IMG/VR virus record: IMGVR_UViG_3300042898_006156
Span: 49,560-113,559 of that record
Reading direction: 5' to 3' (one strand)
DNA: 64,000 nt
From: a virus
A program made the translations under genes and the position numbers. The notes under the pieces were generated by a model. It did not search any database. It was not told where the DNA came from and saw only the letters and a program-made list of their open reading frames with translations. Shown here piece after piece: positions 21,153 to 54,539 of the stretch. The stretch's first letter is position 1. Every line of letters begins with the position of its first letter.

Positions 21153-21181
21153 AAAAAACCCCTCGAAAGAGGGGTTTTTTT
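21153..21181. terminator. Bidirectional rho-independent terminator
   Basis: AAAAAACCCCTC-GAAA-GAGGGGTTTTTT between convergent genes. Confidence 0.9.
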
Positions 21182-21830
21182 ACATCATTGGTAATGGACT
21201 TGCTTTTCTGAAATCTTTGTATATTCTGTTAACTTGTTTTACAAAAGCTTCGTTTCTTGCAGAATTTTCAAAAAAATCTTGATAATCTAAAGCTAATTTG
21301 TCAGCTTTAAACTTCTTCTTATTTTTGAGCAATTCTTTGATTTGACCAATAATTCTTCTGTATACATAACCTTGCTCTCTTTCATCAAGAATAGGCATTT
21401 TTGGACCAGAGGGTTTATTAATAGTAATATCAGTGTTAGAATTACCAGAAGGTGTATCTTCCACATTTTCATTTTTTTCAGGTCTTAAAGTAGGATTATC
21501 TGGATCTATTACAGTTGTAAATTTACCCAATCTATTTCTTTGATCAGTGGCTTTTTCTATAGCTTTATCAATATACTCTCTTTCTTCTTCAGAATATCGG
21601 CCTGGATCATTTTGATACCACTTGACTAAATTTTCAAAATCTTCATTTGGATTTTGAGCCAAAAGAAACAACTCATCCATAAATTTTTCAGGAGTTTTTA
21701 CTTCATTGGATACAATTTGGGATACTTTTAAAAATTGTTTATGAAGCACTTCTGCAGCTTTGAAATCTCCATAAGTTTCTAATAATTCAATATCTTTGTT
21801 GATTTTTGATAACTTTATAAATTTATTCAT
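21180..21830 (-). CDS. Putative virion cargo protein with helical leader
   Basis: 216 aa; leader MNKFIKLSKINKDIELLETYGDFKAAEVLHKQFLKVSQ shared with neighbour. Confidence 0.75.
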   Translation of the reverse strand: MNKFIKLSKINKDIELLETYGDFKAAEVLHKQFLKVSQIVSNEVKTPEKFMDELFLLAQNPNEDFENLVKWYQNDPGRYSEEEREYIDKAIEKATDQRNRLGKFTTVIDPDNPTLRPEKNENVEDTPSGNSNTDITINKPSGPKMPILDEREQGYVYRRIIGQIKELLKNKKKFKADKLALDYQDFFENSARNEAFVKQVNRIYKDFRKASPLPMM

Positions 21831-21832
21831 AA

Positions 21833-22489
21833 TTAACTCTTTGCTACTGATCCACCTTTATTTTTATCAATCATTCCTCTCAATGTATTGCACTGTGCTG
21901 CAAATGGTCCACAATCCATACCATATTCTCGCTGTAATCTTTGCAATTCGTTTTCTAAATATTGCAGTTCTTGATCTTTTTTATTTTTATCACCATACTG
22001 AGTTGGAGGTGGAGTAGGAGGAGGTACATTTTGTCCACCTGGATTTGTATTACTTCCTTCGTAAGGAGGCTGTACTTGTCCACCAGGTGCAGGCGCAGGT
22101 GAAGGTAATGGTGCTATCTGCATATTTCCAGGGCTCGGTTTAGGAGCTGGAGCAGGGCTTGGAGCTGGGCTTACTCCTGGATTTGGTGGGCCTATTGTTT
22201 GAACAGGAGTTGTTCTTGGTTGAGCTACAGGCATTTGTGCAGGTGCAACAACTGGTTTGGCTAGAGTTGTTGGAGCGATCATTGGTCTTGCCATCATTTG
22301 AGGCATCATCATTGGCATCATTTGTGGCATCATCATTTGAGGCATCATTGTGGTCATCATTTGAGGCATTGCATACTGTGCCTCTTTAATAAACTTCTGA
22401 TGTAATATTTCTGCTGCTTTGATTTTGCCAGCATTCTCTAATAATTCGATATCTCTATTTAATTGAGCTAATTTTTGAAATTTGTTCAT
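21833..22489 (-). CDS. Met/Pro/Gln-rich low-complexity putative virion cargo protein with helical leader
   Basis: 218 aa; leader ends FIKEAQ, followed by MPQMM repeats and a Pro-rich region. Confidence 0.75.
   Translation of the reverse strand: MNKFQKLAQLNRDIELLENAGKIKAAEILHQKFIKEAQYAMPQMMTTMMPQMMMPQMMPMMMPQMMARPMIAPTTLAKPVVAPAQMPVAQPRTTPVQTIGPPNPGVSPAPSPAPAPKPSPGNMQIAPLPSPAPAPGGQVQPPYEGSNTNPGGQNVPPPTPPPTQYGDKNKKDQELQYLENELQRLQREYGMDCGPFAAQCNTLRGMIDKNKGGSVAKS
22291..22372 (-). repeat. Imperfect tandem coding repeat (MPQMM units)
   Basis: Repeated GGCATCAT(CAT)TTG(A/T) units on the + strand. Confidence 0.75.
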
Positions 22490-22522: not shown

Positions 22523-22549
22523 TTCCCAAGAGTTGATTTTTCTACCTTT
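22523..22549 (-). promoter_or_regulatory. Putative late promoter AAAGG-N18-GGAA
   Basis: Same geometry as the AAGG-N18-AGAA motif, upstream of 22489. Confidence 0.55.
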
Positions 22550-30462: not shown

Positions 30463-30493
30463 AAAAAGAGGGGAGAAATCCCCTCTTTTTTTT
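30461..30493. terminator. Bidirectional rho-independent terminator
   Basis: AAAAAAAGAGGGGA-GAAA-TCCCCTCTTTTTTT between convergent genes. Confidence 0.9.
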
Positions 30494-30854
30494 ATTTTGG
30501 TTTATAGTACATAGTTCTGGAAAATGTATCTGTCAAATCATAATCTTTTCTTTTTCCAGCATTATCTACAAATTCATTTCGCTCATAAAATCTTTGAAGT
30601 GCACCCTTTTTGCCTTTCTCAGGTTCAGGGTTTAAAACAATTGGCTTGCTTACTCTTTGGCTATAATCTTTAAGAGCAGTAATTATTTCTGTTCCTATAC
30701 CCATACCTCTCATCTCTTTTGGTATGAATATTTTATCTAATTTGATTTTGTTTTCAAATTCATTGATTCTTAAAACAATTTCTGGATATTTATTCATAAA
30801 AAAATTGATTAATTCTTGAATATCATTTTGATTTTGAGCAAGTCGATACCACAT
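30492..30854 (-). CDS. GNAT-family acetyltransferase with MWY leader
   Basis: LDKIFIPKEMRGMGIGT (motif A), LQRFYERNEF; ATG at 30854 gives MWYRLAQ (track start 30869). Confidence 0.8.
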   Translation of the reverse strand: MWYRLAQNQNDIQELINFFMNKYPEIVLRINEFENKIKLDKIFIPKEMRGMGIGTEIITALKDYSQRVSKPIVLNPEPEKGKKGALQRFYERNEFVDNAGKRKDYDLTDTFSRTMYYKPK

Positions 30855-30855
30855 A

Positions 30856-32790
30856 TTATTTCCTAACAACTTGCGCTTGTTTGGATTTGTAATAATTTAG
30901 TAATTCTTGTTTTTGGGCTTCCGACCATTCATTGAGATTATAAATTCTCATAAAAATAGGTCCTTTAATTTTTATATTGCTGGCCATCAATTTATCTATT
31001 GCCTTTATAGCTGATTGAAAAGTAATTTTTAATTTTGTATTATTTTGAATTAACTTTTCATATTTTTCTTTCAAGCTCATTATTTTAATATATAAATCAT
31101 TTGCAATTTTCTGTTTGACATTTTCTAATGAGTTCTTAGTGAAATTATCTTGCTCTAAAGTTTGATTTATTTTTTGCTTGACAATATTTGGATCTAGCGT
31201 ATAAGCAGTTGAGGCGATTTGATAAGGCGAATGCATACCTTGATATGTTGGTTTGCTTGTTTGTGAAATTTGGAAGTCATATAAGAAAAAATCTTCAGGA
31301 TTATTAAAAGTCAACGGAGGAAAAATTGTCTTAATTAATTGCTGATATATTCTGTCAATATTTGCCTGATCATCAATATACTTAGAATTTTTTGTTGATA
31401 TGGCATTAATAATTTTTTGCCCAATTTCATATTCATATTGATTGGCTAGTACCATTTCATCCAATAAAGAAACTTGTGGTATTTTTTGCAAATCAGATTT
31501 ATTTGGAAAACCTGCAGACATGAAATATCTTACAGCTTCGGGCATTAATTTATTTTTAAAATATCTAAATTCTTTATTGTCAGGAGTGAAATGAAATGGC
31601 ATACCATCATATTTCATCCATTCCATAACTTTTTGACCAATTGATGATTCGTAAATATCCAAATGTTGGTCAATAAAATCTTTAATATTTTTTGGTAAGT
31701 AAAAATTGTTTATAAGTTGATTAATTGGACTTATTTTTTCTCTATCTTTGAAAGTAAAATTTTTATAATTGAAAGAAGATGGATCTTTGGTTTTATCCAA
31801 TGATAAAGATAACCTGTAAAGTGCTAACTCTAATTCATCTTGAGAAACAGGTTCTATACTAAAAAAATATTCATTTTTATTCAAGAATCCTACAATATCA
31901 TTTATTTTTTGTTGATCATTGATTAAATTTTTTGCATATTCGTGTTTGTCACCAGAAAATTTATCTATTGCATTTTGAAATGCCCCAACTAAAGTACTCA
32001 ATCTTCTTGATTTAAGGTTCGTAGTTGTATCAGATTTAGATAATTGACCTTTTTGCTTCAAAGAATCAAATTTTATATCAGAACCAAAATCTTTAAAGCT
32101 GCTAGGATTTTTTTTGACTTCTTGTCTTACAATATCTAACAACTGATTTTGTCTGATATTTTGCTCAGAAGTTTCTGGGAATCTATACTCAAACCCCATC
32201 AATGATAATATTTCGTAACCTTCAGCAAATGCCTCGAACTTATTCGTTTTTGCGTAGCCAGTTGGAGCCATTCTTTGATATTTCTTCATGTCTTGATTAC
32301 TACGATCTAGTCGTGTTGATTTATCAATAGCGTGTCCAATCTCATGATTTAATGAAGACATAATATAATCGAAATTAATAAATATTTTATCACTTGTGGG
32401 TTCATACAAACCTGTCCAAGGCAAGTTTTTATTAATACCTATGTTAGTTAAAACTGTGCCTCCGCCTTCTTTGCCCACATTTATATCAAGACCCTTTGAA
32501 GCAATAGTGTTTAAGGCTCCTTTAGGGTATAATGCAAAAACATTCATTACAGTAGAAAAAATTTCATTGATTTGAGATTGAACTAAATTTTTAAATGTTT
32601 CCAAAGTTAACTTAGATTTTGATTCTGTTTGTAGTTTTGAATCACCACCAGGTAAACTTTGATATATATTAACAGTTGGATACTCAGGCAATCCATTAGA
32701 AGTCAAAGTACTTTTCAAAGAAATTTTTAAAAAATTTCCTTCTTGGGTAATATTATAGTTAAATTTATTCTGAGCTGTTTTGTACCACAT
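30856..32790 (-). CDS. Putative virion cargo protein with zincin (lethal-factor-like) metallopeptidase domain and MWY leader
   Basis: MWYKTAQ; GLYEP...LNHEIGHAID...YAKTNKFEAFAEGY. Confidence 0.75.
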   Translation of the reverse strand: MWYKTAQNKFNYNITQEGNFLKISLKSTLTSNGLPEYPTVNIYQSLPGGDSKLQTESKSKLTLETFKNLVQSQINEIFSTVMNVFALYPKGALNTIASKGLDINVGKEGGGTVLTNIGINKNLPWTGLYEPTSDKIFINFDYIMSSLNHEIGHAIDKSTRLDRSNQDMKKYQRMAPTGYAKTNKFEAFAEGYEILSLMGFEYRFPETSEQNIRQNQLLDIVRQEVKKNPSSFKDFGSDIKFDSLKQKGQLSKSDTTTNLKSRRLSTLVGAFQNAIDKFSGDKHEYAKNLINDQQKINDIVGFLNKNEYFFSIEPVSQDELELALYRLSLSLDKTKDPSSFNYKNFTFKDREKISPINQLINNFYLPKNIKDFIDQHLDIYESSIGQKVMEWMKYDGMPFHFTPDNKEFRYFKNKLMPEAVRYFMSAGFPNKSDLQKIPQVSLLDEMVLANQYEYEIGQKIINAISTKNSKYIDDQANIDRIYQQLIKTIFPPLTFNNPEDFFLYDFQISQTSKPTYQGMHSPYQIASTAYTLDPNIVKQKINQTLEQDNFTKNSLENVKQKIANDLYIKIMSLKEKYEKLIQNNTKLKITFQSAIKAIDKLMASNIKIKGPIFMRIYNLNEWSEAQKQELLNYYKSKQAQVVRK

Positions 32791-35948: not shown

Positions 35949-36638
35949 ATGGCAACCGAAGATTTCAGAATAGTCAGAATAGTAAATAGAGCTAAAGCAG
36001 GAAACCAAGCAGCATTTAAAAAGTTGCTTAAGATGGTAGAACCAGATCTCAAGAAGATTGCACCACACTTTTTCATAGTCGGCGGAGACAGAGAAGATGT
36101 AATGCAAGAATTGAGATTAGGTGTATTTAAAGCGGTAAATTCCTACGATTGCACTAAAGACACAACATTTAAGAACTTTTGCGTAAATTTAGTTTGTAAA
36201 AGACATCTTGCAACAGCTATAGCGTCAGCGAAAAGAATGAAGAATTCAGCTTTGAATGATTCTATTTCGCTAGACGCTCCTTTTATTTTAAATGATGATG
36301 GTAATTTCCATTCATTAGGAGACTATATTCCTGATAAGAAAAATCCTTATGATGAATCTCCAGAAGTAAATTTAGTTGAAGATATTATTGTTAGACAAGA
36401 ATTAGAATTAAATTCAGAAATGTTGATGGATAAACTCACTTCATTAGAAGCAGACATTTTTGTTGAATATGGTCACAATTCATCATACAAAGAAATTTCT
36501 CACACCTTGAATGTTCCAGCTAAATGTGTTGACAATGCACTCACTAGAATTAGAAAAAAAGCATCTGAGGTTTATGTTCAATTCAAAGATGATGAGAACA
36601 ATGATGCTACTCATAAGAAGCCAAAAGGTAGATCATGA
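35949..36638 (+). CDS. sigH: sigmaH (Spo0H)-like RNA polymerase sigma factor
   Basis: FFIVGGDREDVMQE, FKNFCVNLVCKRHLATAIASAKRMKNSALNDSISLDAP, LTSLE, SYKEIS, KCVDNALTRIRKK closely follow SigH (YFLIGADREDIVQE...KSIDNALQRVKRK); ATG 35949 with GGGAG RBS (track start 35931). Confidence 0.9.
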   Translation: MATEDFRIVRIVNRAKAGNQAAFKKLLKMVEPDLKKIAPHFFIVGGDREDVMQELRLGVFKAVNSYDCTKDTTFKNFCVNLVCKRHLATAIASAKRMKNSALNDSISLDAPFILNDDGNFHSLGDYIPDKKNPYDESPEVNLVEDIIVRQELELNSEMLMDKLTSLEADIFVEYGHNSSYKEISHTLNVPAKCVDNALTRIRKKASEVYVQFKDDENNDATHKKPKGRS

Positions 36639-37267
36639 TAAACTTTCTTCGCACAGCATCTGTTTTGGATATCTTAGGATGCTTCAAACTTGCAGATAAA
36701 TTTACCAAAGTAGCAATTGATTCTTCTGATTTGGATTTTGATCAGGTATATAAAAATCCTCAGACATTTTCTGATTTTGCCTTAACCAGAGCTAGAAAAG
36801 AAGGCAAAGATCCTATTGAAGTTTTAGGTGATGATAACTTCACTTTTGATCGTTCAAAAGATCCTTTAGAACAAATTTCTGACAAACATAAAGGCACAAG
36901 AAAACATTTTGAGCTTTATCCTCAAATTTTATTATTTCCTGAAAGTGGTGTTTGGAAATTTTTCTTTATGGATCCTTTGTCATTTAAGGCATTATCAAGA
37001 GGGTCTGATAAAGAAGGTAAACTAATTACAGATCAATTGTCTATTCCTGGTTTAGAAGAATTATATAGTGATGAAGAAGATGCAGAAGAAATTCATCATG
37101 AGGTTGTTTTCACCACTAATTTACCATTAGAAGATTACAGCAAAGACGAAGCTATAAGTAGAATAAGACAAAAATTCCCTGATGCCCACATTGATTATCA
37201 AATGAATGGTGTGGATGACAGGGAATTTTTTGATGAAGAAAAAGATATAGATTTATCTTCTTCTTAA
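36635..37267 (+). CDS. Acidic protein with short helical leader (putative virion cargo)
   Basis: MINFLRTASVLDILGCFKLADKFTKVA leader. Confidence 0.7.
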   Translation: MINFLRTASVLDILGCFKLADKFTKVAIDSSDLDFDQVYKNPQTFSDFALTRARKEGKDPIEVLGDDNFTFDRSKDPLEQISDKHKGTRKHFELYPQILLFPESGVWKFFFMDPLSFKALSRGSDKEGKLITDQLSIPGLEELYSDEEDAEEIHHEVVFTTNLPLEDYSKDEAISRIRQKFPDAHIDYQMNGVDDREFFDEEKDIDLSSS

Positions 37268-38878
37268 TAATCCTGATAAAATGCCTTGAACTTGCTCATC
37301 ATCTAAATTAACTTTAGGCAAACTAAATCTTGATTTTTTCTTAAAGAAGTCTGCAGAATGATTTTCTTTAGATTTTCTTCCAGTGTTTCCATTTAAATTA
37401 AATTCAACAATATAATTTTTCTTTTTATCTGGGAAAATAAATTCAACAAACTGATTTACATCGTCATATTCATTTGAAGTAGGTTCGTGTATTCTCAATG
37501 ACACATTTTCACCCAAATGTTTTCGCATAGTGTCAACAACCATATCATCTAATTCAGGGTGTATTCCAGGTATTCTGCTTCTTTTAGAATTGAATTCTTC
37601 TGGCTTATCCAAAGCAGTATCTGGTTTATTTTCTAAATAATATTTATTGTCTTCTCTTTTTTCAGGAATATTTGGCTTGATACGAGAAGAACTTGGTTGA
37701 ACTTCCACTGGCTCTGTTTCAACATTGATTTGTGGAGTATTAAATTGCCTATTATTAAATGTAGGTGTAGTTAAGGACATAGCCTGATCAGATACATTAT
37801 TTTCTGTATTTTTTTGATCTATTTTTTCTTCAGCAGGACCAATTTTACTCTTTGGTTTACTTACTGCCTGAGGTAATGGTACTTTAATATTTTCTTCAGA
37901 TTTAATTTTTGTAGGCGATTGTTTTGATGGAGGCGTATCAGAATGTTGATTTACTCTTTCTTTTTTATCTTCTATCTGTTTGGAGGCTTGAGCTTTTGAT
38001 TGTGAATCAACAAGCTTTCCATTATCAAAAACTTTTATTGATTTGAATTTTTTTGGACTAGTAAATGGTTCTGAAATTTTTTCACCAGATTTTGCTTTAA
38101 GTTTGGTAGTGTTTCTATCATTATTTTCGTCTACTGTCTCAATAATAATTTGATGGAATTTATCATCACTCGGAGTTTGATATTGAATAAAATATCTATA
38201 CACATCATTGACTCTAGTGACATTGATAATTCTTCTATCTTCAACAATTTCAGAAACGGAAGGTATTTGCTGGATATTAAATAATGTAAAATTGACTGGA
38301 GGTAAAGAAGATAAAATTGAAGATATTACTCCAAAAATTACAGTGATGTATTTTGCAATCTCTTCTCTGTTTTCAATGAGATATTTAAGTAAATAATATA
38401 ATTTTGCAGATCCTGCTAAAACAAAAGCAACTGGCAAGCCTTTTCTTATAGCTACTTTTAATGTTTCATTTAACTTATTAATTCTTTTGTCTGATACTGA
38501 TAAAGTTTCAAGCATTTCGACAATTTCTTCACCTTTTTCAGATCTTTCTTGAACATCTATGAATTGATCATTTCCTGTAGATTGTAAAAATTGTTCTGCA
38601 AGTAAACTGTTGTTTGCTCCATATACATTAAAAATTTCTTCAAAATCATCAGATTCTTCAAATTGTGGTTGAGATCTAAAATATTCAATTGCAAAATTTT
38701 TATATTCTTCTTCTAAACCTTTTTCAGCAATAATATCTAAAGCTTCTTTATCACTTGGATTTTGTGTAGGTTGAGCAACTTTTATAAAATGCGAATGTAA
38801 TATTGAAGCTTCTTTGAAATTATTATTTTCAAAAGTTGTGATAATATCATGAAAAAGTACTAGATCAAATGTTTTCAT
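37253..38878 (-). CDS. Putative virion cargo protein with helical leader and possible membrane segment
   Basis: 541 aa; leader ends HFIKVAQ; hydrophobic YITVIFGVISSILSSL; long disordered C-half. Confidence 0.7.
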   Translation of the reverse strand: MKTFDLVLFHDIITTFENNNFKEASILHSHFIKVAQPTQNPSDKEALDIIAEKGLEEEYKNFAIEYFRSQPQFEESDDFEEIFNVYGANNSLLAEQFLQSTGNDQFIDVQERSEKGEEIVEMLETLSVSDKRINKLNETLKVAIRKGLPVAFVLAGSAKLYYLLKYLIENREEIAKYITVIFGVISSILSSLPPVNFTLFNIQQIPSVSEIVEDRRIINVTRVNDVYRYFIQYQTPSDDKFHQIIIETVDENNDRNTTKLKAKSGEKISEPFTSPKKFKSIKVFDNGKLVDSQSKAQASKQIEDKKERVNQHSDTPPSKQSPTKIKSEENIKVPLPQAVSKPKSKIGPAEEKIDQKNTENNVSDQAMSLTTPTFNNRQFNTPQINVETEPVEVQPSSSRIKPNIPEKREDNKYYLENKPDTALDKPEEFNSKRSRIPGIHPELDDMVVDTMRKHLGENVSLRIHEPTSNEYDDVNQFVEFIFPDKKKNYIVEFNLNGNTGRKSKENHSADFFKKKSRFSLPKVNLDDEQVQGILSGLLRRR

Positions 38879-38887: not shown

Positions 38888-38914
38888 TACTTATTTATAA
38901 AACTTAATACCTAT
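38888..38914 (-). promoter_or_regulatory. Putative late promoter ATAGG-N18-AGTA
   Basis: Variant of AAGG-N18-AGAA, 9 nt before ATG 38878. Confidence 0.45.
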
Positions 38915-41628
38915 CCTAAACTTTTTCTAAAATTATAAACTTTAGCAGTTTTATCTTCATCTCTCTCTATAGAAAGATCAACTTGTGTTTCATCTTGTTC
39001 AGCATCATCAAATCCTGGAAAATTGCCCGGTGGTCTTCCTGGTCCTTTAAATCTAGGAATAATGACATCAATTTTTCTACCACTAGGAATTGGTTCTGTC
39101 TGCTGTATTTGGAATCTTGAGTGTCCCTTGATATCTTGAGCTGTTGGAGGATCTTGTGTCTTTTTAGCTTGTTCTCTTAATTGCTCATTTTCTTTTCTTC
39201 TATCTTCGCCTTCTGGATTTACAATGTCTGTAGTAAGCAATCCGTTAGCCACAGCTTCTGCAATCTTTGAATAATAATCAGACATATATCCTTCAACTAC
39301 AGCTTCAGATACATCTTTAACATCAAAGATTAACATTTTTCCAGATTCTATTAATTGGGTTTCTACTTCTTTTAATTCTTTTTCAAGATCTGTTCTTTCA
39401 CGAGAATAAATAGGAGTAGACTGTATTTGTTGTAATAATTGATTTTTCCTACCAATCAAGCCTCTTCTGTAATCTCTTCTGCCTTGTATTTGAAATGTTT
39501 CGTGAAAAATCATCTCAAGTCTATTTCTTTGACGTTGTAATTTTTTATTAATTGCTTCAAGTGGGTCTGTTAATTTTATGGTTTGACCAGAATCAGATGT
39601 GAAAGTACCAAATCTTCCAGCTTCCATGTCTGCAAGTAATCTTGTAGCATTGGTTCCACCTGACATTAAGTGAACCATCTCATCCTGAATATCTAAAATC
39701 CATTGTTCTTTTGCAGCATTATAGATTTTTCTATCAGACATCAAGTTACCAATATGAGCATCAAATATTTTTGAAAGATAAGGAATGTCTCCGTGGATTC
39801 TTGCATAAAGCTCTGATGGATTAGAGATATATGCTTCTTCTGGTGTCAATTCTGGATTTAATGCAATAGAATCTTGCATCGTCAAATCACCAGACTGTAA
39901 ATATTGCAATGCGTGAGCAACTTCGTGTCTTCTGGTAGCTTCAACATAATTTTCAGCATCCATACCAATGTTTTCTGCTAAAGCTTTATGATAAGAAAGT
40001 TGATTCCATATGTCAGTTTTAATTAAGATAGCTGGTACTGGGCCTCTATCTTTAGTTGGAAATCTTGGGACAAATAATCCACCCCATTTTTCATCAATCA
40101 AATCTACAGGACCAATTTTCATTTTTGGAGCATTATTTTCTTGCATAAAGTTTTGTAAGCTCCAAGTGCTAAATTCTATGATTACCATCTGATCAGCATA
40201 TGTTTTGATGTCTTTTATGCTTGTTCCAGCAAAGGGTGCTTCTTGCATCATACGATCTTCATAGGATTGATATATTTTTCCAAAAATTTCGTCAGATTTA
40301 TTTTTTTGTCTAATTCCGCTTTCTGACATACCTTCTGGAACTACTTCATTTTTAGGTCCTTTTCCATATGCATAGTTGAAAGAACTATCTGATGCTTTAG
40401 TAATTTTAATTACACCCTGTTTTGCAGCTTTTTCCAATAAAGCTAAACCGTCAGATTGAATTTTTGCTTTGGCTGCAGTTCCACGAGCAATGATTTTATT
40501 TTTAATCTCATCACCCAAACTGCTCAAAAGATTTATATTAAATTTATCAAAATCTTCTGGGTTTTTTTCCAAATACCTTATGATGACTTCAGGCTTTGCA
40601 ATTCCCTTTATTATATACATAGGTGTGCAATCATCACCTAGCGAATCAATATAAGCAATAAATTTTTTACTTCTTTTAAGTTTTCCAATTAGCAAAGGAT
40701 TGTTGTCTAGTTCATATGAATTAATTACGTTATATAATCTTTTGACTAAAGGTGTTACGAATTCATCATACTGGGTATATTGTTCTAAATTAGTAAGTGT
40801 GTCAACTAAAGACTCTGTAGGTAAGCCCATAACCATGCTAACAACATCTTTTTGTTCTATATCAGATTGATTTAATATCTGAATAATCATATTTAAAATT
40901 TGAGGTGGATCAATTCCTGAAAAAAGAAAACTCTTTAATAGGGGCAGATAATTCTTTATTTCTCCACTCCAAATTGTAGTAATTGCAGCATCGTAACTCT
41001 CAAACTTTTCCAATTCAGGTTTCTGTTGTTTTAATTGTTCTATCAATAAATTTCTTTGTTCAGAATCGGGTATTCCCAGTAATGCTTTGTCATCACCACG
41101 CATCATAAATAAAGAGAGAGAATCACTTATTTCAGTGCCTTTTCTAACTAATAAATTAAGTGTCGTAAATCCAATACCTAAAGTAGAATTGACATATGCT
41201 TTTGCTTTTTCAGCATCAGGAATTTCGTCTCCTAATTTATTTCCTTTATGTCCTTGAGATTTTGAAAAACTATTTAATTTTCCCAAAAAATCTAGAACTT
41301 TCATCATATCTGTATTGGCAGAACTACCTTGTTTTTTCATTTCATTATCAATAAATTTTGATAATCCGCTAGTAAAATTGATTATATCTGCCATAGCATT
41401 AACATCTGTTGTAGCTTTTTCAAAATATTTATCAATAATAGAATCATTATTTTTGCCTTTTTCTATGTCAAATAACAACTTAAGCATAGCAGTCATAGTA
41501 GGCATATTATTTGGGCTGTAAAATGAAAAATCTTTGAATGTTCTAGAAAAAGAGCCACTCCAAACAACTTCTTTAGTTGAAAGGACATCCCAGGCAGTTG
41601 CTGATTCGATAATTTTTGAGTACCACAT
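38911..41628 (-). CDS. Large putative virion cargo protein with zincin metallopeptidase domain and MWY leader
   Basis: MWYSKIIESA; WGGLF...TRRHEVAHALQ...YISNPSELYAR. Confidence 0.75.
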   Translation of the reverse strand: MWYSKIIESATAWDVLSTKEVVWSGSFSRTFKDFSFYSPNNMPTMTAMLKLLFDIEKGKNNDSIIDKYFEKATTDVNAMADIINFTSGLSKFIDNEMKKQGSSANTDMMKVLDFLGKLNSFSKSQGHKGNKLGDEIPDAEKAKAYVNSTLGIGFTTLNLLVRKGTEISDSLSLFMMRGDDKALLGIPDSEQRNLLIEQLKQQKPELEKFESYDAAITTIWSGEIKNYLPLLKSFLFSGIDPPQILNMIIQILNQSDIEQKDVVSMVMGLPTESLVDTLTNLEQYTQYDEFVTPLVKRLYNVINSYELDNNPLLIGKLKRSKKFIAYIDSLGDDCTPMYIIKGIAKPEVIIRYLEKNPEDFDKFNINLLSSLGDEIKNKIIARGTAAKAKIQSDGLALLEKAAKQGVIKITKASDSSFNYAYGKGPKNEVVPEGMSESGIRQKNKSDEIFGKIYQSYEDRMMQEAPFAGTSIKDIKTYADQMVIIEFSTWSLQNFMQENNAPKMKIGPVDLIDEKWGGLFVPRFPTKDRGPVPAILIKTDIWNQLSYHKALAENIGMDAENYVEATRRHEVAHALQYLQSGDLTMQDSIALNPELTPEEAYISNPSELYARIHGDIPYLSKIFDAHIGNLMSDRKIYNAAKEQWILDIQDEMVHLMSGGTNATRLLADMEAGRFGTFTSDSGQTIKLTDPLEAINKKLQRQRNRLEMIFHETFQIQGRRDYRRGLIGRKNQLLQQIQSTPIYSRERTDLEKELKEVETQLIESGKMLIFDVKDVSEAVVEGYMSDYYSKIAEAVANGLLTTDIVNPEGEDRRKENEQLREQAKKTQDPPTAQDIKGHSRFQIQQTEPIPSGRKIDVIIPRFKGPGRPPGNFPGFDDAEQDETQVDLSIERDEDKTAKVYNFRKSLG

Positions 41629-44797: not shown

Positions 44798-45364
44798 ATG
44801 GCTGATCATAACTACGACGAAATTAATAAATTACTATATAAGTACAAAGCTGGTAATGATTCGGCTTTATATGAATTGTATGAATTTTATAAACCCTTAT
44901 TTATTTCATCCGTAAAAAGAATTATCTATAAAGAACCTAGACTTTCTCCTTACAGAGAAGATATTTTAGGCGATACATTATTTGTTTTTATTAAGTTGAT
45001 AGACCAATATGATCCTAAATTATCTTATTTCTCATACTTCTTATCTACTAGAATTGATATAAATTTATTTCGTTATATTTCTGACAAATATTTTCCAAAA
45101 GAAGAGTCAGTAGAAGAAGTAGAATTTCAAGAGCAATATGATGATCCATTTAATAAAATTGACAATGTAATTTGCATTCATCAAGCTTATGAAAAATTAA
45201 ATGAGAAAAGCAAAGAAGTGATACAAGTTTATTTCTTTGAGCAATTAGATCAAAAAGAAGCTTCTGAAAAGTTAGGAATTACTCAAGGTGCCTTTTCTAA
45301 AAGACTATCTAAAGCGCTTGAACAAATGAAAAATATATTGGGAAAAGATTTCCTTTTTGATTAA
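44798..45364 (+). CDS. sigma70-family (region 2 plus region 4) sigma factor
   Basis: GNDSALYELYEFYKP, YDPKLSYFSYFL, LNEKSKEVIQVYFFEQLDQKEASEKLGITQGAFSKRLSKAL. Confidence 0.88.
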   Translation: MADHNYDEINKLLYKYKAGNDSALYELYEFYKPLFISSVKRIIYKEPRLSPYREDILGDTLFVFIKLIDQYDPKLSYFSYFLSTRIDINLFRYISDKYFPKEESVEEVEFQEQYDDPFNKIDNVICIHQAYEKLNEKSKEVIQVYFFEQLDQKEASEKLGITQGAFSKRLSKALEQMKNILGKDFLFD

Positions 45365-45448: not shown

Positions 45449-45506
45449 ATTATTTAAATAAGTTCCTTTATTGGTGGGGATAAAAAATCAAAGGGAGATA
45501 AGAGAA

Positions 45507-46220
45507 GTGTCTGAAAACAACTCAAATGACATGATTTACAACTGGCGCAATGAATTACGTTCACATAATGATGGTGTTCTTATTGTTGCAAATAGTCAAG
45601 CTCAAAAATACAAAAATCAAGGTTTCGATAAGTCCGAAGTTGTAGAATTGCTCGCAGCTGATAATTTTGATTTAGACGTTGCTAATAGAATCGCTTCAAA
45701 GTTATTTGATTCTGCTGAAAAAGTAGAACAAAACACTGCTGTTGAAGTTGCTGTAGTTCCAACTAGATATTCTGACTGTGCTCCTGTTATTGAAAGATCA
45801 TTAACTAAATTGTCTGCAAAGGAATTCGTCAAGAGACTTTGTGGTGGTCCTCATTCAATTGTAAAAACTGATGAAAAGGGATTAGGATTCTGGTTAAGAA
45901 TTACTCAAGCTGCTAAAGATAGTACTTCTGGGAAGAATCATTTACACGCATCATTAAGACCTTACATCGAAGAAACACTTCTCAACAATGTTCTTTTAGC
46001 ACAATCCCAAGAAGCACAAATCAAGACTGCTTCAAAAACCAAATTTGTTGTATCTATGAAGAAGGGAACTGCTGAAGTTGATTTATCAAATGCAACTTCA
46101 TCAAGCGACAAATTTATTGCTGGAAATTATGTTGATTTTGGGCTTGCTGATGAATTTATGGTGAAGGCCGCTGATACAGTTTCGCCATATCAGAGATTGA
46201 AAAGAGCTCTCAAAGACTAA
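45507..46220 (+). CDS. Hypothetical head-region protein
   Basis: GTG 45507 with AAGGGAG RBS (track start 45471); contains IKTASK site. Confidence 0.7.
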   Translation: MSENNSNDMIYNWRNELRSHNDGVLIVANSQAQKYKNQGFDKSEVVELLAADNFDLDVANRIASKLFDSAEKVEQNTAVEVAVVPTRYSDCAPVIERSLTKLSAKEFVKRLCGGPHSIVKTDEKGLGFWLRITQAAKDSTSGKNHLHASLRPYIEETLLNNVLLAQSQEAQIKTASKTKFVVSMKKGTAEVDLSNATSSSDKFIAGNYVDFGLADEFMVKAADTVSPYQRLKRALKD

Positions 46221-46239
46221 CTCACACTCTAAACTATTG

Positions 46240-46271
46240 AACAAGCCGCTTTTAAGCGGCTTGTTTGTTTT
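46240..46271 (+). terminator. Rho-independent terminator
   Basis: AACAAGCCGCTT-tt-AAGCGGCTTGTT followed by a T-rich tail. Confidence 0.75.
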
Positions 46272-46285
46272 GTATAACTAAAGAA

Positions 46286-46966
46286 ATGGAATCAAAAAAA
46301 GAAACTGTAGATGCACTCATTGTTCCTGATGAAGGACCAAAGAAAGCATCTAAAATGTTCAGGGATTTGAAAGAAGGGGACAAACCATTAGCGCCTCTTC
46401 CCCCTGATAATATGAGTGATATATCTTATCCTCAATTTATGGAACCAAGATGCGCAATTTGTACTTCACCTTTCAGAGATTTGGTAGAACACGTATATCT
46501 TGATTCTGGACGTAAAAATCAATCAGTAATTAGATTCTTCCTACAGTATTTTGATGCACAGATGAACTGGATGCAGATTAATACTCACATGGAACAACAC
46601 TGTGATTTCAAAAAAATCTCAACTTCAGGTCTTAAAAATTATGAGCAAAGGGAAGAACTTATTGCTCCTTGGATTTTTCGTGAACATCATCTTGCCTTGA
46701 CTGCATTACTTGTAGAACTTGATGATGTAAGAGGAATTGACTGCTCTAAAAACAATGATATGAAGCTTAAAAGAGCAGCAATGGTAGAAAAGTTAATTTC
46801 TAAAATCTTACATCTTAAAGAAGTAAGAGATAATCAAGGTATTTATAATATCAACATTTTCGAAATTCTTGCTAAATTGCACGAAAAGATGGATTCTGAA
46901 AATGATAAAAGAATTATTAGAGAAGAAATTGTTGCTTTAAGAGAAAAGATCCAACAAGATAATTAA
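46286..46966 (+). CDS. Putative terminase small subunit
   Basis: Directly upstream of TerL; EPRCAIC...H...H zinc/HTH-like N-domain, helical C-terminus; ATG 46286 (track start 46265). Confidence 0.65.
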   Translation: MESKKETVDALIVPDEGPKKASKMFRDLKEGDKPLAPLPPDNMSDISYPQFMEPRCAICTSPFRDLVEHVYLDSGRKNQSVIRFFLQYFDAQMNWMQINTHMEQHCDFKKISTSGLKNYEQREELIAPWIFREHHLALTALLVELDDVRGIDCSKNNDMKLKRAAMVEKLISKILHLKEVRDNQGIYNINIFEILAKLHEKMDSENDKRIIREEIVALREKIQQDN

Positions 46967-49077
46967 TGAGAAAACAAACACAAGTTCCTAAATCTCCAAC
47001 AGAATTAAGAAACCAATTACTTCAACAAGCCAATACAGTAACAGAATTATTTAAGGGTACTGAATATGCAGATGATTTTGTTGACGAAATTGCTCCTGCC
47101 ACAAGATCAGAAGTCGCTCCTCCATTAAAGCCACCTAAAGACAGATTTAATCCTGATCAAATTGTAGATATTATTACATTTATCGAACATCCCTATTTTT
47201 GTAATCTAAGACCTTATCCTTGGCAAAAACTTATATTAAAGTGTTTTTATATGGGACAAGAAGGCAATACTAATCTTGTAATCAATGAATCTGATAATCA
47301 AGAAGATTGCAAGGGGTGTGTTTGGGATTATGTTCAAAAGAATGAGAATGAATTTTTAAAATCTCGTTCAGAAAGTAAGCAATTTAAAACAATTTTTAAT
47401 GTTGTTAATTCTCCTTGTTTGCAATGTAAGCGTCTTGATAATAATGTTAGAGAAGAAAGATATAAATATGCCAAAGACGAAGCTACAAACCCTGATGCAG
47501 AAAGACAAGTAGAAGTATTAGAAGCAAGACCAATTATTGATGGTTTTCAAAGTGAGTTTGATTTACTTTATTCTGAAGAATTTGATCCAAAATTGAGAAT
47601 GCAAGTTCAAGAGAAATGCACTAAAAGATATAAATTTGAAGAATTAGTTTTAGTACTTGGCAGACGTTCAGGAAAATCATTCCTAGTGTCTGCTATGGCT
47701 CTTTATGAATTATATAGATTGATTTCTATGGGACATCCTCAAGCAAGATATGGTTTGATGGAATTTGATGAAGTTGTTATTCTCAACGTTGCTCGTAATG
47801 AAGAACAGGCTAAAAAAGCAATCTTCTCAAAAATCAAGCAAACAGTTTTAGCTTCTCCATTTTTTGCACCTTATATTGGCAAAGATACAGAGCTTGAAAT
47901 GAGATTCTACACTGAACACGACCGGGAAGAGAATGTAAGAAGAAAAGAGCAAAATATCAATCTTTTTGCGGGTTCTTTAGTATTACGATGTGGTTCTAGT
48001 AATGCTTCAGGTCTCGTTGGTTTAACTTGTTGGACAATTATTATGGACGAAGTTGCAGCAATGGCAGGAGACAATCCTGAATCTGGTGTTGACTATGCTC
48101 TTTATGATGATTTGAAGCCATCTCTTGCTACATTTGGTAAAGACGGAAAGATGATGCTTCTTTCCAACCCCAAAGGTCCTCTTGGGTTACTTTATGATTT
48201 GCACGAGAATAGACAAGAAGATCCTACTACACTTGTTATGAGACTACCAACTTGGCTTACTAATCCAAACATTGATAAAGAATGGTTAGACGGTCAAAAG
48301 AAAAAAGATCCTCAAGAATTTCAAATGCAATATGGTGCAGAGTTTGGTGCATCATCATCTGACCCAATGTTCAATGTTGAAGATGTTGACAGAATGTTCT
48401 CTTCAATGTCTATGGTGAAAAGAAAAGAACAAGCAGAAGGACATTTTGAATATTTTTGTCATTTAGATCCTGCAAGAACTTCAGATTATTACGCCCTTGT
48501 TATTGCTCATACAGAAAATATGTATGGTCAAATTGGTCCTGATTTTCAGCCATTAAAAAGAGTTGTTATTGATCACATTCATTTTTGGAATCCAAGAACA
48601 AAAAATCAACCCGTTAAAGAAAAAGATGTTGAAGATTATGTAATTGAATTGCATAGAAAGTTTAAATTTAAACAAGTAAGCATTGATCAATGGAATTCTC
48701 AATCCTCTCTTATAACTTTACAATCACGAAGAATTCCTATCGTAGAACGTCAATTCAATAAAGAATATAAAGAGAAAATTTATACCGAACTTTCTCAACT
48801 AGTTCGAGATGACCGAATTGATATTTATGATTTATCTGGTGGTGAATATCGAGATTTAGATCACAGATTGATATCTTTGAATGAGATTCAAGAAGCTAAA
48901 ATTCAGTTTTTGTTTTTACAAAAGAAGTGGAAAGGTAAAAGATATTACATTGAAGCTCTATCAGGTTACAAAGACGATATTTGTGATGCTGTAGCTGCTG
49001 TTGCTTACGAATGTCTTACTTCAAAAATTATGATTAGATTACCAAGATCAAAAATGGTCAATCTAAATAGGCGATAA
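46966..49077 (+). CDS. terL: Terminase large subunit
   Basis: PYPWQ, VLGRRSGKS (Walker A), IIMDEVA (Walker B), LSNP, YGAEF, HLDPA (RNase H-like), DQWNS, KDDICDAVA. Confidence 0.93.
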   Translation: MRKQTQVPKSPTELRNQLLQQANTVTELFKGTEYADDFVDEIAPATRSEVAPPLKPPKDRFNPDQIVDIITFIEHPYFCNLRPYPWQKLILKCFYMGQEGNTNLVINESDNQEDCKGCVWDYVQKNENEFLKSRSESKQFKTIFNVVNSPCLQCKRLDNNVREERYKYAKDEATNPDAERQVEVLEARPIIDGFQSEFDLLYSEEFDPKLRMQVQEKCTKRYKFEELVLVLGRRSGKSFLVSAMALYELYRLISMGHPQARYGLMEFDEVVILNVARNEEQAKKAIFSKIKQTVLASPFFAPYIGKDTELEMRFYTEHDREENVRRKEQNINLFAGSLVLRCGSSNASGLVGLTCWTIIMDEVAAMAGDNPESGVDYALYDDLKPSLATFGKDGKMMLLSNPKGPLGLLYDLHENRQEDPTTLVMRLPTWLTNPNIDKEWLDGQKKKDPQEFQMQYGAEFGASSSDPMFNVEDVDRMFSSMSMVKRKEQAEGHFEYFCHLDPARTSDYYALVIAHTENMYGQIGPDFQPLKRVVIDHIHFWNPRTKNQPVKEKDVEDYVIELHRKFKFKQVSIDQWNSQSSLITLQSRRIPIVERQFNKEYKEKIYTELSQLVRDDRIDIYDLSGGEYRDLDHRLISLNEIQEAKIQFLFLQKKWKGKRYYIEALSGYKDDICDAVAAVAYECLTSKIMIRLPRSKMVNLNRR

Positions 49078-49102
49078 AGGTTATTTTTTTAAATAATAAG
49101 AA
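49076..49102 (+). promoter_or_regulatory. Putative late promoter AAAGG-N18-AGAA
   Basis: Exact motif 9 nt before ATG 49112. Confidence 0.65.
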
Positions 49103-49111
49103 CAAATCATT

Positions 49112-50104
49112 ATGTCTAACAATATCAGAACAGCTCAATTTGGTGGTGTAGGCGGCGGGGGAAATGGCTCTGCTTTTCAGCCTGGTGGTAGCCCTTTAGG
49201 TCGTGGTGGATCTAATAGGGGTGGTCACGAGATTAACATTTATGTTGATGAAGATGCTAGTTTTGATAAATTATTAAGAAGAACCCATATTGAGCCTGAT
49301 AATAGAGATGTAAATATTGAGTCGAGACTTACTCCTCAGCACAAACATTATGAAGAGATGATTCCATATGAATTAACTCCTGAAGAAAGAATGAGAGCTA
49401 AATTTAGAGCTCAACTTCATAATTATAAAAACTCACTTGAAAATGCTGCAAACAGTTTGATGAAAAATAGTCCAGCTTACATAAAAGAACATTATCATCC
49501 TAAAGCTGAACATATGATGACTATGGAGCAATCTTTAGAAGATCGTCATAAATATAATAAAGACTTCAAATATCCAAGAGAAGAATACAAAGATCCTGAT
49601 AAACCAGAAAGATTACATTTTGCTATTTCGGATCAAGCTATGAACCGTGTAGCTGAAGATTATGCAGTTAGAAGAAGAAACAGACTTACTGATGAATATC
49701 CAGAAGATAGGAATGAGTTTGATGAAAAACAATTTTCATATGCTCCTATTGGCAAAACACCAATCTTAATTCAAGGTGAAGATATTGATATTTATATGCA
49801 AGACTTGATGTCTGTTAATACTCCTGATCACGATGGATTTCAGGAATATGAGCTTAAGGATACTGTTTTAACCTATCCTGAGCCAGATGGTAAAGCAAAT
49901 GTACACGCTCCAAAAGATATTGCACCAGAACCAGAAGAAATGAAAGATGTTAATGTTTTTATGTCTTTAGAAGGTCAAATGCATCCAAACAAGAAATTCA
50001 CCACTTACCTTGATTACAACGATCAATCCTTAAAAGAAGACAAAGGTGTAGAGGAAGTTTATGATGGTTCCGCATTTTATGGAATTAGCGGTCATAGTTT
50101 GTAA
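49112..50104 (+). CDS. Head-region protein (RTAQ site, Gly-rich N-terminus)
   Basis: MSNNIRTAQFGGVGGGG; ExQL-like motifs. Confidence 0.75.
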   Translation: MSNNIRTAQFGGVGGGGNGSAFQPGGSPLGRGGSNRGGHEINIYVDEDASFDKLLRRTHIEPDNRDVNIESRLTPQHKHYEEMIPYELTPEERMRAKFRAQLHNYKNSLENAANSLMKNSPAYIKEHYHPKAEHMMTMEQSLEDRHKYNKDFKYPREEYKDPDKPERLHFAISDQAMNRVAEDYAVRRRNRLTDEYPEDRNEFDEKQFSYAPIGKTPILIQGEDIDIYMQDLMSVNTPDHDGFQEYELKDTVLTYPEPDGKANVHAPKDIAPEPEEMKDVNVFMSLEGQMHPNKKFTTYLDYNDQSLKEDKGVEEVYDGSAFYGISGHSL

Positions 50105-50138
50105 AGGTAAATAAAGAGAGAGTTAACAACAACAAATT

Positions 50139-50597
50139 ATGAAAGCAAATTCAATCCAAACAATAATCAAGCTTTGTTCAAGATTAGACAAAACAGGCCA
50201 CTATTCTAAAGCTGATCTTTTGTTTGAAAAAATTGCTCAATACTATCCCCAACAATCAGTAACTCAATCGCCAAATGTATCTTTAGTTCCCTATGAAGAC
50301 ATTGAAGAAGAAACCAAGCAAAATGATTTCTGGCGACAAAAAATTAATCCAAGAAAAATTCCAAAAGAATATTTTGACTTGGGTGGAGAAGCTGATGGAC
50401 AAAGTATCGAAGGTCAACTACATGGTCCTGACAATGTTCCAGGGCCAGCATATATTGATCCAGGTAATCCAGCATCAAGCCCCTCAATGGCAGTTCACAG
50501 TGGAGAAGATTTGTGCGATAAATTTTCCTGGGAAGAAACATATGAGAAAAATGTTGATGAAGGGAATGCTTGGAAAAACAGAATACCATACAGATAA
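50139..50597 (+). CDS. Head-region protein with helical leader
   Basis: MKANSIQTIIKLCSRLDKTGHYSKADLLFEKIAQ; AAAGG-N18-ACAA upstream at 50103-50129. Confidence 0.75.
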   Translation: MKANSIQTIIKLCSRLDKTGHYSKADLLFEKIAQYYPQQSVTQSPNVSLVPYEDIEEETKQNDFWRQKINPRKIPKEYFDLGGEADGQSIEGQLHGPDNVPGPAYIDPGNPASSPSMAVHSGEDLCDKFSWEETYEKNVDEGNAWKNRIPYR

Positions 50598-50608
50598 GGA
50601 ATTAAATT

Positions 50609-51100
50609 ATGCCTATACCAATTAAACCAGTTCATTCTTTAGACTTACATGCAGAATTATTTGACGGCCCATCAATGGAAGGCCTTGGACTTTCAGATAT
50701 TCAAATTCAACTTCTTGGTGTTTCACAAGCTCCAAAGAAAATTGAAGCTGCTAAATTGAGTGAAAGATACTTGAATATGCTCAAGTCAATTGATGCAAAT
50801 ACTGATGAACTAGTTACTGCAGCTAGCTATGTTGCTTTGCACAAGGACAGTACAATTTGTGGTGTTCCAACAGAAATTTCTGACAACGATCTTTTAGCTA
50901 TGAAAACAGCTGGATTACTTACTGGTTATGGAAGATCTGTAGAACTTACTGAAAGAGCAAGATTAGCATTACGTGATCATTATTTAAGCATAGATAATGT
51001 TAATGAGTTTAGAAAGCAAAGAACAAAAGATAGATTTGACCTTGATCAAGCAAGAAGTGTAAAAGCATCTTCAAGTAAATTTAAGAAAGTTGGTTCTTGA
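50609..51100 (+). CDS. Hypothetical protein with winged-helix-like C-terminal part
   Basis: DLLAMKTAGLLTGYGRSVELTERARLAL; ends at a TGA in frame with the DUF192 ORF. Confidence 0.7.
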   Translation: MPIPIKPVHSLDLHAELFDGPSMEGLGLSDIQIQLLGVSQAPKKIEAAKLSERYLNMLKSIDANTDELVTAASYVALHKDSTICGVPTEISDNDLLAMKTAGLLTGYGRSVELTERARLALRDHYLSIDNVNEFRKQRTKDRFDLDQARSVKASSSKFKKVGS

Positions 51101-51481
51101 CTCACTAGCAAAGAATTCCGTGATGAATTCGATGTTAGGTTTGTAGCAGACACAGATAAATTAAGAACTAAAGGCTTGATGAATGCAGAGCCTTTAGATG
51201 ATTATGAAGTAGTATTTTTTACTTTTGATTATCCAGATTGCTATTCATTTTGGAATAAAAACGTATCATTTGCACTTTCTTTAGCATTTTTAGATAAAAA
51301 TTATAAGATTGTGGATATTAAGGATATGGAAGCAGATGACCCTAAATCTGTATCTCCAGATTCGAACAATGTTGTATTTGTTGTAGAAGCAAAGAAAGGA
51401 TTGTTCAAAAAATTAGGCATCGGTGTTGGAGATAAATTGTTTTTGAAGGGCAAGAAAGTAATTTTCAGTAAAAAAACATAA
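51101..51481 (+). CDS. DUF192-family protein (conserved N-terminus lies upstream of the first start codon at 51176)
   Basis: VADTDKLRTKGLM...FWNKNVSFALSLAFLD...VVEAKKG...IGVGD. Confidence 0.8.
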   Translation, partial: LTSKEFRDEFDVRFVADTDKLRTKGLMNAEPLDDYEVVFFTFDYPDCYSFWNKNVSFALSLAFLDKNYKIVDIKDMEADDPKSVSPDSNNVVFVVEAKKGLFKKLGIGVGDKLFLKGKKVIFSKKT

Positions 51482-51492
51482 ATGGATGCATT

Positions 51493-51519
51493 AAAGGAAT
51501 TTGAGCATTAAATTTAGAA
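51493..51519 (+). promoter_or_regulatory. Putative late promoter AAAGG-N18-AGAA
   Basis: Exact motif upstream of 51560. Confidence 0.65.
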
Positions 51520-51559
51520 ATTTTCTTAATGTATTTTTTCTTGAGGAGAAAAATTAATT

Positions 51560-52642
51560 ATGGCAGATAGAATTTTCCCAAACAGATTTCAAGAAGATCC
51601 TCTTGATTCTGACTTGGTATTTCAAGGAATCGATTGGGATAACTTTAACCAAAGATTAGCTGAAGCAAAAGAGCCAAAAGAGAACAAGGGTCTCAAAGCT
51701 CTTATTGACGCTATTGGTGACGAAGAAATCGATAGATTGCAAGGCGAAGATCATGATGATCATGATGAAGCTTCAATGGACCATAAGTCTGGTTATATGA
51801 AAGAAGCTAAAAAAGGCCTTCCAGAAGGCTTGAAGAAGTGGATGGAAGAGAATGGCAAGGGCAAGAAGAAGTCTGAAGATTCTGAAGATGAAGATCATGA
51901 TGATAAAGATCATGAAGATCATGAAGATGAAGAAGAAAAAGCTGACAAAGGTCCTATGACTAGAAAAGGACCTAAGTCCAAGTCTGAAAAGAAAGCTTAT
52001 CATTTCAATCATGCATCACAATTGTCAGCTGAAGCAGTAGAAGCTGCAGTGGCTGCTGGTGATGAAGACCTTAAAGAAGCTATTCTTGCTGCTCGTCACG
52101 ACAGAAGAGTTAGATTAGCTGGCAAAATTGAGCGCCAAGTTCAAGCACAACAAGAAACCAATTTGAAGCTTGCACAAAGAAGAGCTTACAGAGAATCATT
52201 GGTTCAAAAAGTTGCTGCTAAGATGGATGATGAGAAAGAAGCAGCTATGGAAAAATCTTGCGAAAAATGTGGCGGAGTTTATGCAGGCAAGAAATGTGAA
52301 TGTGCTGACAAATCAAGTATGAAAGAAGCTAAAGCATTCTCATCAGCTGCTAGAAAAGCATTTGCTGCTAAAGCTCTTGCTGAAGGTTTTCCAATAGAAT
52401 ATATCAACGCAAGATTAGGTGAAACATCAGCGCCTACAGTTGATAAATTATCCGACATCAAGAACGTTCTTGCTTCTGACCTAAACACAAATGTAAAGGT
52501 TGCTGCAGCTTCTTCAATGATTAAAGTTGCAACTCTTTCAGACGCAGACTATTCCAGAATTGTCGATTACTGGAAAAATGAACTTGGTTATGGCGATCAA
52601 GAGTGGATTGATGCACTCTTTACCAAAAAATACGACAAGTAA
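51560..52642 (+). CDS. Charged head-region protein (scaffold/internal-protein-like)
   Basis: GAGGAG RBS; D/E/H/K-rich tracts, CEKC...CEC, many KxA sites. Confidence 0.75.
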   Translation: MADRIFPNRFQEDPLDSDLVFQGIDWDNFNQRLAEAKEPKENKGLKALIDAIGDEEIDRLQGEDHDDHDEASMDHKSGYMKEAKKGLPEGLKKWMEENGKGKKKSEDSEDEDHDDKDHEDHEDEEEKADKGPMTRKGPKSKSEKKAYHFNHASQLSAEAVEAAVAAGDEDLKEAILAARHDRRVRLAGKIERQVQAQQETNLKLAQRRAYRESLVQKVAAKMDDEKEAAMEKSCEKCGGVYAGKKCECADKSSMKEAKAFSSAARKAFAAKALAEGFPIEYINARLGETSAPTVDKLSDIKNVLASDLNTNVKVAAASSMIKVATLSDADYSRIVDYWKNELGYGDQEWIDALFTKKYDK

Positions 52643-52654
52643 CAATTACCATCC

Positions 52655-54537: not shown

Positions 54538-54539
54538 TT

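Follow-up and report, generated by a model that had tools for sequence, protein, structure and literature searches.

A portable, solitary TPR-like hairpin on otherwise unrelated proteins of uncultured huge phages

A large number of proteins is assumed to be packaged by huge phages, and to our knowledge the addressing of such cargo is not understood outside T4 and the phiKZ/SPN3US group. Short terminal elements that tether cargo or scaffold inside an HK97-fold shell are represented by the cargo-loading peptides of encapsulins and by the C-terminal helix-turn-helix of the P22 scaffolding protein. The T4 internal proteins IPI, IPII, IPIII, along with the protein Alt, have the capsid targeting sequence (CTS) alone in common, which comprises about 10–20 amino acids (aa), is strictly N-terminal and ends in L/I-x-E (Mullaney & Black 1996; reviewed in PMC3012670, PMC7411985). 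For SPN3US, long N-terminal propeptides as well as a C-terminal one on the protease were proposed to serve prohead targeting (PMC7411985), and the propeptides of phiKZ and SPN3US span 64–130 aa, are family-specific and are cut at A/S/G-x-E (PMC7411985, PMC5694885). Here, we describe a segment shared by otherwise unrelated proteins in a DNA stretch of 64,000 nucleotides (in the following termed the window), which represents the final 64 kb (positions 49,560–113,559) of the 113,559-bp IMG/VR virus record IMGVR_UViG_3300042898_006156. This segment is a portable, solitary helix-turn-helix resembling a single tetratricopeptide repeat (TPR), and it sits on a tether at the ends of protein chains.

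A solitary TPR-like hairpin shared by unrelated proteins

The initial annotation of the window listed five proteins beginning with a similar segment, and this observation is confirmed. All five open reading frames, i.e., 21833–22489(−) (gene A), 21180–21830(−) (gene B), 37253–38878(−), 50139–50597(+) and 36635–37267(+), are present with the N-termini quoted for them. Their bodies are indeed unrelated, as BLAST among the five yielded no similarity (best E 0.5). In the tandem genes A and B, 23 of 38 residues are identical in the leader and only one of the 38 residues that follow. Such an abrupt stop of similarity, claimed for all members, holds between paralogues but not between orthologues, where e.g., the family of the protein at 50139 is conserved past the junction.

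A profile built from nine copies located outside the window returned the proteins at 36635+ (E 0.004) and 50139+ (E 0.012) as top non-training matches in a search space of 2170 six-frame segments, and, conversely, a profile derived from the five copies in the window recovered three of the outside ones. The subtype formed by the proteins at 21180, 21833 and 37253 was missed by the outside-only profile in these 2170 segments; it is linked to the other copies via intermediates in the relative G001 and by a common profile. A profile scan gave 71 matches in four proteomes, compared to zero in reversed sequences and zero in five shuffles. Chance similarity was consequently ruled out by cross-validation together with the reversed and shuffled controls. 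Apart from the five known copies, no further one was found in a six-frame scan of the window.

The module has the consensus h..h.kIAxxLDxxGxYkxA[DNES]xh..h.[KR]hA, a length of ~30–40 aa, and the same helix-turn-helix pattern, LA..L...G.Y.eAe....[KR]A, as the TPR_12 and TPR_10 repeats of the kinesin-light-chain type. For the 152-aa protein encoded at 50139–50597 (20 orthologs), AlphaFold2 predicted a helix at residues 3–19, a two-residue turn and a second helix at residues 22–35 with pLDDT values of 80–91; the remainder of the model is mostly below 50 and disordered. The model of the gene B product features helices at residues 3–20 and 23–43 separated by a turn, followed by a helical body with a disordered stretch. 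In line with this prediction, the TPR domains of kinesin light chain (KLC1) are the best PDB sequence matches of the module, and hhalign aligned the module profile to one KLC-type repeat with a probability of 83% (E 8.5e-6). Furthermore, the strongest multi-stretch matches in a scan of 1.84 billion representative proteins were bona fide tandem TPR proteins with a period of 42 residues. The Pfam threshold was not reached by the module (best TPR_2, E 0.17, 12.5 bits vs. a cut-off of 27), and no TPR_12 array (PF13424) was found in five genomes of the clade. Whereas TPRs form tandem arrays that build a solenoid groove, the module is always a solitary unit, and one unit per site was found in place of a tandem array of three or more repeats. 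In the 25 residues adjoining the module, D, E, P and M are enriched 1.5–1.8-fold and hydrophobic residues are depleted, and this linker behaves as a flexible acidic, proline-rich tether.

Within the 113.6-kb fragment, the module occurs in 14 copies, 12 of which are N-terminal and two are located at the extreme C-terminus of ~1000-aa proteins; five large near-complete relatives gave 10–27 matches apiece. Among the 71 copies in four proteomes, 53 are N-terminal, 11 extreme C-terminal and approximately three truly internal, meaning that ~75% occupy the very start of the chain and ~15% its very end. A strictly N-terminal location, as assumed before, is contradicted by these copies and by the multi-copy proteins described below, and the term “cleavable N-terminal leader” is therefore unfit as a general definition. 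The modular character proposed for the segment holds nevertheless, since it is the only common part of otherwise unrelated proteins, even though not always at the same end. In the clade, the hairpin is carried by 8–27 such largely disordered proteins per genome.

The scan of the 1.84 billion representatives returned 1031 clusters at E ≤ 1e-3. Considering the best 150 of these 1031 clusters, 101 feature a single N-terminal copy on small proteins, while two or three copies, in many cases one per end, are present in about 20 phage-like proteins. Multi-copy proteins with copies at both ends are P0018, P0022, P0067, P0089 and P0011. Every cluster member looked up was metagenomic and unnamed, being described as “hypothetical protein” only, and related-locus searches with P0089 and P0097 recovered no viral contig. 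A separate observation concerns the database protein P0044 (612 aa), which has two hairpins and a body belonging to a family with the motif ...NPSLW...DVYP, including an apparent intein-like insertion.

Most bodies are hydrophilic, acidic or rich in Pro, Gln and Met, with disorder being predicted for them, and some contain zinc-ribbon motifs or hydrophobic membrane-like segments, the latter e.g., in the 541-aa protein encoded at 37253–38878. Pfam and PHROGs searches with the five bodies and nine other tagged proteins revealed no useful family; the sole matches in these runs were GNAT and PcfJ, each in one protein of the MWY class introduced below, and glycoside hydrolase family 5 (GH5) in a 781-aa protein. 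Gene B has 42 homologs, all of them unnamed and metagenomic, and a Foldseek search of its model against PDB and BFVD gave nothing at E ≤ 0.001. For a 1007-aa protein with a C-terminal module, the ESM Atlas returned a score of at most 0.85, which serves as a lead only.

A conserved terminus in front of a variable body is typical of the anchors of receptor-binding proteins. The hairpin could thus plug fibres, decoration proteins or adhesins onto the exterior of capsid or tail, and the Pro-rich extended linkers would suit such a function. However, small size, acidity or disorder characterize the bodies, and several contain the mentioned hydrophobic segments or zinc ribbons. Searches with Pfam, PHROGs and for folds, which left most bodies without annotation, detected neither Ig-like nor beta-helix nor lectin domains in them. 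External anchoring belongs to the less likely options and appears improbable to us.

The same low rank is assigned to the option that the copies have no common function at all and represent a stable helical cap, which was spread by recombination among fast-evolving paralogues with bodies diverged past recognition. Tandem arrays of small paralogues, as present at 145–151 kb of G001, would agree with such a history, and so would the finding that the tag is usually retained in orthologs and mostly travels with its body. Nevertheless, the module is maintained by selection on architectures as different as folded ~1000-aa proteins (with C-terminal copies), membrane-like, zinc-ribbon and intein-bearing ones, and it has been gained or lost on homologous bodies, of which a few were found both with and without it. 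Moreover, the 152-aa family retains the module in ~43 orthologs, down to 49% portal identity.

Possible destination of the tagged proteins

A lone TPR unit exposes hydrophobic packing faces and would therefore have to bind a common partner or other copies. Tentatively, we interpret the hairpin as a docking tag of portable nature, through which mostly disordered proteins are brought to one shared assembly. The prohead is the likeliest candidate for this assembly, and we regard this as a plausible but far from secure reading. The lone hairpin would act as a plug by which every carrier is attached either to a single shared partner or to further copies of the module, and the destination would be the assembling head, i.e., the prohead core or the shell interior. 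In this way, the tag could fill the role which the CTS has for the internal proteins of T4. N-terminal copies ending in [KR]-x-A-[QS] might additionally be clipped by the phage prohead protease, which is the least secure step of this scheme.

Three observations suggest the prohead as destination, namely the member located in the head module, the end motif shared with head proteins and the association with the promoter-like motif. As already noted in the initial annotation, one member is part of the head module, and this 152-aa protein is kept between large terminase and portal in ~43 relatives. With respect to the capsid-loading tag suggested at that stage, its portability, the head-module member, the encoded protease, the head-enriched end motif and the promoter-like motif shared with head genes speak in favor of it, while the segment is not restricted to N-termini and has no similarity to the T4 CTS in sequence.

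Alternatively, the hairpins could associate with each other by stacking in trans, either as a split TPR solenoid or as four-helix bundles, and build up a multi-protein body or condensate of the infected cell, such as a viral factory or hub, that is not necessarily part of the virion. Several features make such a sticker possible, albeit with a lower probability than docking at the prohead: the packing faces of the lone unit are unsatisfied, the conserved residues are structural TPR positions without a distinct binding surface, bivalent and trivalent proteins with copies at both ends occur naturally, and the low-complexity or disordered bodies could serve as spacers. Consistently, no TPR array that could act as receptor was found in the phage genomes examined, a search of the head proteins for a receptor (module copy or TPR array) gave none beyond the 152-aa family, and many tagged genes lie among replication genes. 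Self-association would, however, leave the head-module member, the end motif common to head proteins and the promoter link unexplained, unless the body forms inside the capsid.

Docking at the prohead, as favored here, raises the question of the K-x-A/S end, at which similarity was initially reported to stop. Structurally, TPR helix B terminates with K-x-A (A20 to A27 in TPR numbering). The distance between the conserved Ala and K-x-A amounts to 7–8 or 10–11 residues; both classes are one helical turn apart, and the same helix face is therefore kept. Which residue follows the Ala varies (Q, I, E, M, A). Yet this end also agrees with an oriented motif that is enriched in head-module proteins. 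In three near-complete genomes, [KR]-x-A-[QS] was found 4.0–4.5 times per 1000 aa in head-module proteins and 0.61–0.68 times elsewhere, corresponding to a ~6.5-fold higher density, and using the reversed motif as composition control, the forward/reverse asymmetry gave p-values of 0.019, 3e-5 and 5e-5. Within the N-terminal 50 residues of tagged proteins, a density of 10.5 per 1000 aa was reached. Six regularly spaced sites (aa 30, 304, 551, 773, 968 and 1145) are located in the 1378-aa protease fusion, the first post-domain site following ~60 residues past the protease domain, and they are conserved as judged in three to four genomes. This distribution resembles that of a prohead-protease site and suggests a candidate assemblin-like specificity between Ala and Ser or Gln.

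In a strict version of the leader hypothesis, the tag would always be N-terminal and, like the T4 CTS, would in every case be removed at K-x-A by the prohead protease once the cargo has been loaded. The protease required by a T4-type CTS system is encoded by the phage (Table 1), and the enriched motif at tag ends and in head proteins, the regularly spaced sites of the protease fusion and a short MWY[KR]xAQ class ending in the same motif fit this option. We nevertheless consider it unlikely, given the C-terminal, internal and multiple copies, the explanation of K-x-A by helix B with its two spacing classes and the variable residue after the Ala. In addition, neither similarity to the T4 CTS nor an L/I-x-E cut site (T4-like x-x-E) was found in the leaders, which end in [KR]-h-A-x. 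Combining cleavage with self-association, a split solenoid can be envisaged, in which the hairpins of 10–27 proteins per genome, some of them bivalent, stack in trans to build an inner body of the capsid or a cytoplasmic condensate, and N-terminal copies are released by an assemblin-like prohead protease cutting between Ala and Gln or Ser. This variant strikes us as distinctly unlikely.

The MWY class is defined by a second N-terminal signature, MWY[KR]xA[QI], which is present in 32 of 1267 proteins in four genomes, with WY ranking among the three commonest dipeptides at positions 2–3. Its codons vary synonymously, which points to selection at the protein level and rules out a nucleotide-level signal behind MWY. 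MWY genes cluster with module genes, as seen in the window, in L072 and in G001–G003, and besides the carriers listed in Table 1 they include the one encoding the PcfJ-domain protein. A swap between module and MWY start on homologous bodies was observed in one weak case only. Seven of the nine credible minus-strand genes of the window feature the module, an MWY start or a related MFN-type start, and the tagged minus-strand genes form islands among the plus-strand replication genes. The co-occurrence of MWY[KR]xAQ with the head-enriched [KR]xA[QS] makes the specificity of the protease directly testable.

Further hints come from a promoter-like motif, AAGG-N18-AGAA. In a transcription-unit-based test allowing at most one mismatch, it precedes 15 of 45 tagged first-of-unit genes, compared to 64 of the 593 remaining ones (odds ratio of 4.1, p = 1e-4), and the latter 64 include the protease fusion, a 562-aa scaffold candidate and other head genes. 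The exact motif is found before only 5 of 61 tagged genes, i.e., the association becomes visible in the relaxed, unit-based test. These data argue moderately for a co-regulation of tagged genes with head genes, and the support does not go further because the motif was defined post hoc and is absent from most tagged genes.

Besides this post hoc definition, several findings weigh against a docking tag destined for the prohead. The majority of module genes are situated between genes for replication, and just a third have the promoter-like motif. The conserved residues are nearly all generic intra-hairpin TPR positions, and a conserved partner-binding surface is therefore not evident. Only 5 of the 12 N-terminal copies of this genome have a strict [KR]-x-A-Q end, the C-terminal copies on the ~1000-aa family are devoid of a K-x-A-Q end, and internal as well as multiple copies exist. 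Moreover, [KR]-x-A-[QS] is also enriched within the portal, where cleavage is unlikely, and an N-terminal propeptide is absent from the major capsid protein as encoded in a relative. Finally, a cultured relative is missing, as gene B and one module gave zero matches by tblastn against 50,697 GenBank phage records.

Genomic setting and carriers

According to CheckV, the record is ~32% complete, which at 113.6 kb implies a full genome of ~350 kb; the GC content is 32–39%. A search with the portal yielded 69 related loci, including contigs of 261–358 kb, which indicates a clade of uncultured huge phages, and the module carriers belong to this clade of uncultured ~300–360-kb phages. The replication set encoded in the window comprises a clamp, a clamp loader, a DnaB-like helicase, a Toprim-domain primase-like protein and a RecA-like protein, and presumably also a DnaE-like polymerase and a RecJ-like protein, whose labels derive from N-terminal sequence only. 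The module gene at 36635 starts within the stop region of a sigma-factor gene, with an overlap of 4 nt.

The head module spans positions 45500–63383 and includes the large terminase, the portal and the prohead-protease fusion (Table 1). The gene for the major capsid protein is expected past the end of the contig, and the version of a relative (G001 40446–41300) has 284 aa. As a separate feature, the portal has a C-terminal endonuclease-like domain (REase_MTES_1575/DUF559, PF18741/PF04480) at aa 704–773, which represents an unusual fusion.

Table 1. Positions of hairpin modules, bodies, promoter-like sites and neighboring genes in the window.
Feature	Position	Strand	Basis or remark
Gene A, hairpin module (aa 1–38)	22376–22489	−	Profile match
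Gene A, body	21833–22375	−	Met/Pro/Gln-rich low-complexity, Pro-rich linker, conserved C-terminal helical segment; from translation
Gene B, hairpin module (aa 1–38)	21717–21830	−	AlphaFold2, profile match
Gene B, body	21180–21716	−	Helical; disordered aa 102–146; confident C-terminal three-helix region
541-aa protein (37253–38878), hairpin module	38771–38878	−	Profile match, 27.5 bits
210-aa acidic protein (36635–37267), hairpin module	36635–36715	+	Profile
152-aa head-module protein (50139–50597), hairpin module	50139–50240	+	AlphaFold2
Two MWY[KR]xAQ genes: 120-aa GNAT-like protein (30492–30854) and 644-aa protein (30856–32790)	30492–32790	−
905-aa MWY-start protein	38911–41628	−	Shares one unit with the 541-aa module protein, located upstream of it
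177-aa MWY-start protein directly before portal	56191–56724	+	Orthologs keep MWY
Promoter-like AAGG-N18-GGAA upstream of gene A	22523–22548	−	One mismatch to AAGG-N18-AGAA
Other promoter-like AAGG-N18-AGAA sites before head genes	49076–49102, 51493–51519, 59180–59206	+
Two sigma-like proteins	35949–36638 and 44798–45364
Large terminase, start of head module	46966–49077	+	tblastn matches to annotated terminases
Portal protein	56758–59121	+	phrog_16240, E 5e-33; PF06074
1378-aa protein with N-terminal prohead-protease domain	59247–63383	+	phrog_18299, E 1e-21, aa 82–242

Carriers of further architectures were observed in related loci. In L079:8921–10456 (G001 88921–90456, +), the ortholog of gene A runs in frame and without a stop codon into a second module-bearing gene, the body of which has no relation to gene B from the window. 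L072:10687–16507(+) encodes a pair of ~1000-aa paralogues, of which G003 has three; they start with an N-terminus of the MFNNRIVIA/MKRYSFRII type and end in an acidic linker followed by the C-terminal hairpin module. A protein resembling type IV pilins, including an N-terminus of the prepilin type (L072:9180–10145(+)), adjoins a cluster of module genes, and the 781-aa protein mentioned above, encoded at L073:13245–15590(−), contains its GH5 (cellulase) domain with E 1.7e-14.

Significance and comparison with known systems

Irrespective of its destination, the module represents a sequence-defined and structurally simple tag on more than 1000 unannotated protein clusters. Should it act as an address label, the carriers would constitute a list of candidate virion or injected proteins for a whole uncultured clade, among them enzymes and membrane-active proteins with a possible effect on the host during entry, and the hairpin would offer a small handle by which foreign proteins could be loaded into capsids. 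The split solenoid, if true, would amount to a new structural principle for cargo loading in these clusters. Even with a destination outside the virion, it is uncommon for the TPR fold to be employed as a solitary unit serving as a portable connector.

We know of no sequence relationship between the hairpin module and either the encapsulin cargo-loading peptides or the P22 scaffolding element, although the coat-binding element of the latter is also a helical hairpin. The phiKZ and SPN3US systems resemble the one described here in that terminal segments, including a C-terminal one, are the proposed means of targeting to the prohead core. In contrast to their propeptides, to which no homology was detected, the tag of this clade is one portable module. 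It differs from the T4 CTS as well, being a TPR-like hairpin of 30–40 aa without sequence similarity to the CTS, which occurs also at C-termini and in multiple copies, is used on 8–27 proteins per genome, and has a putative role only in loading and cleavage. What both have in common is a conserved terminal segment as the sole shared part of their carriers, together with a phage-encoded prohead protease. In the clade described here, the tag end also coincides with a motif enriched in head proteins, with a strict fit in 5 of the 12 N-terminal copies of this genome.

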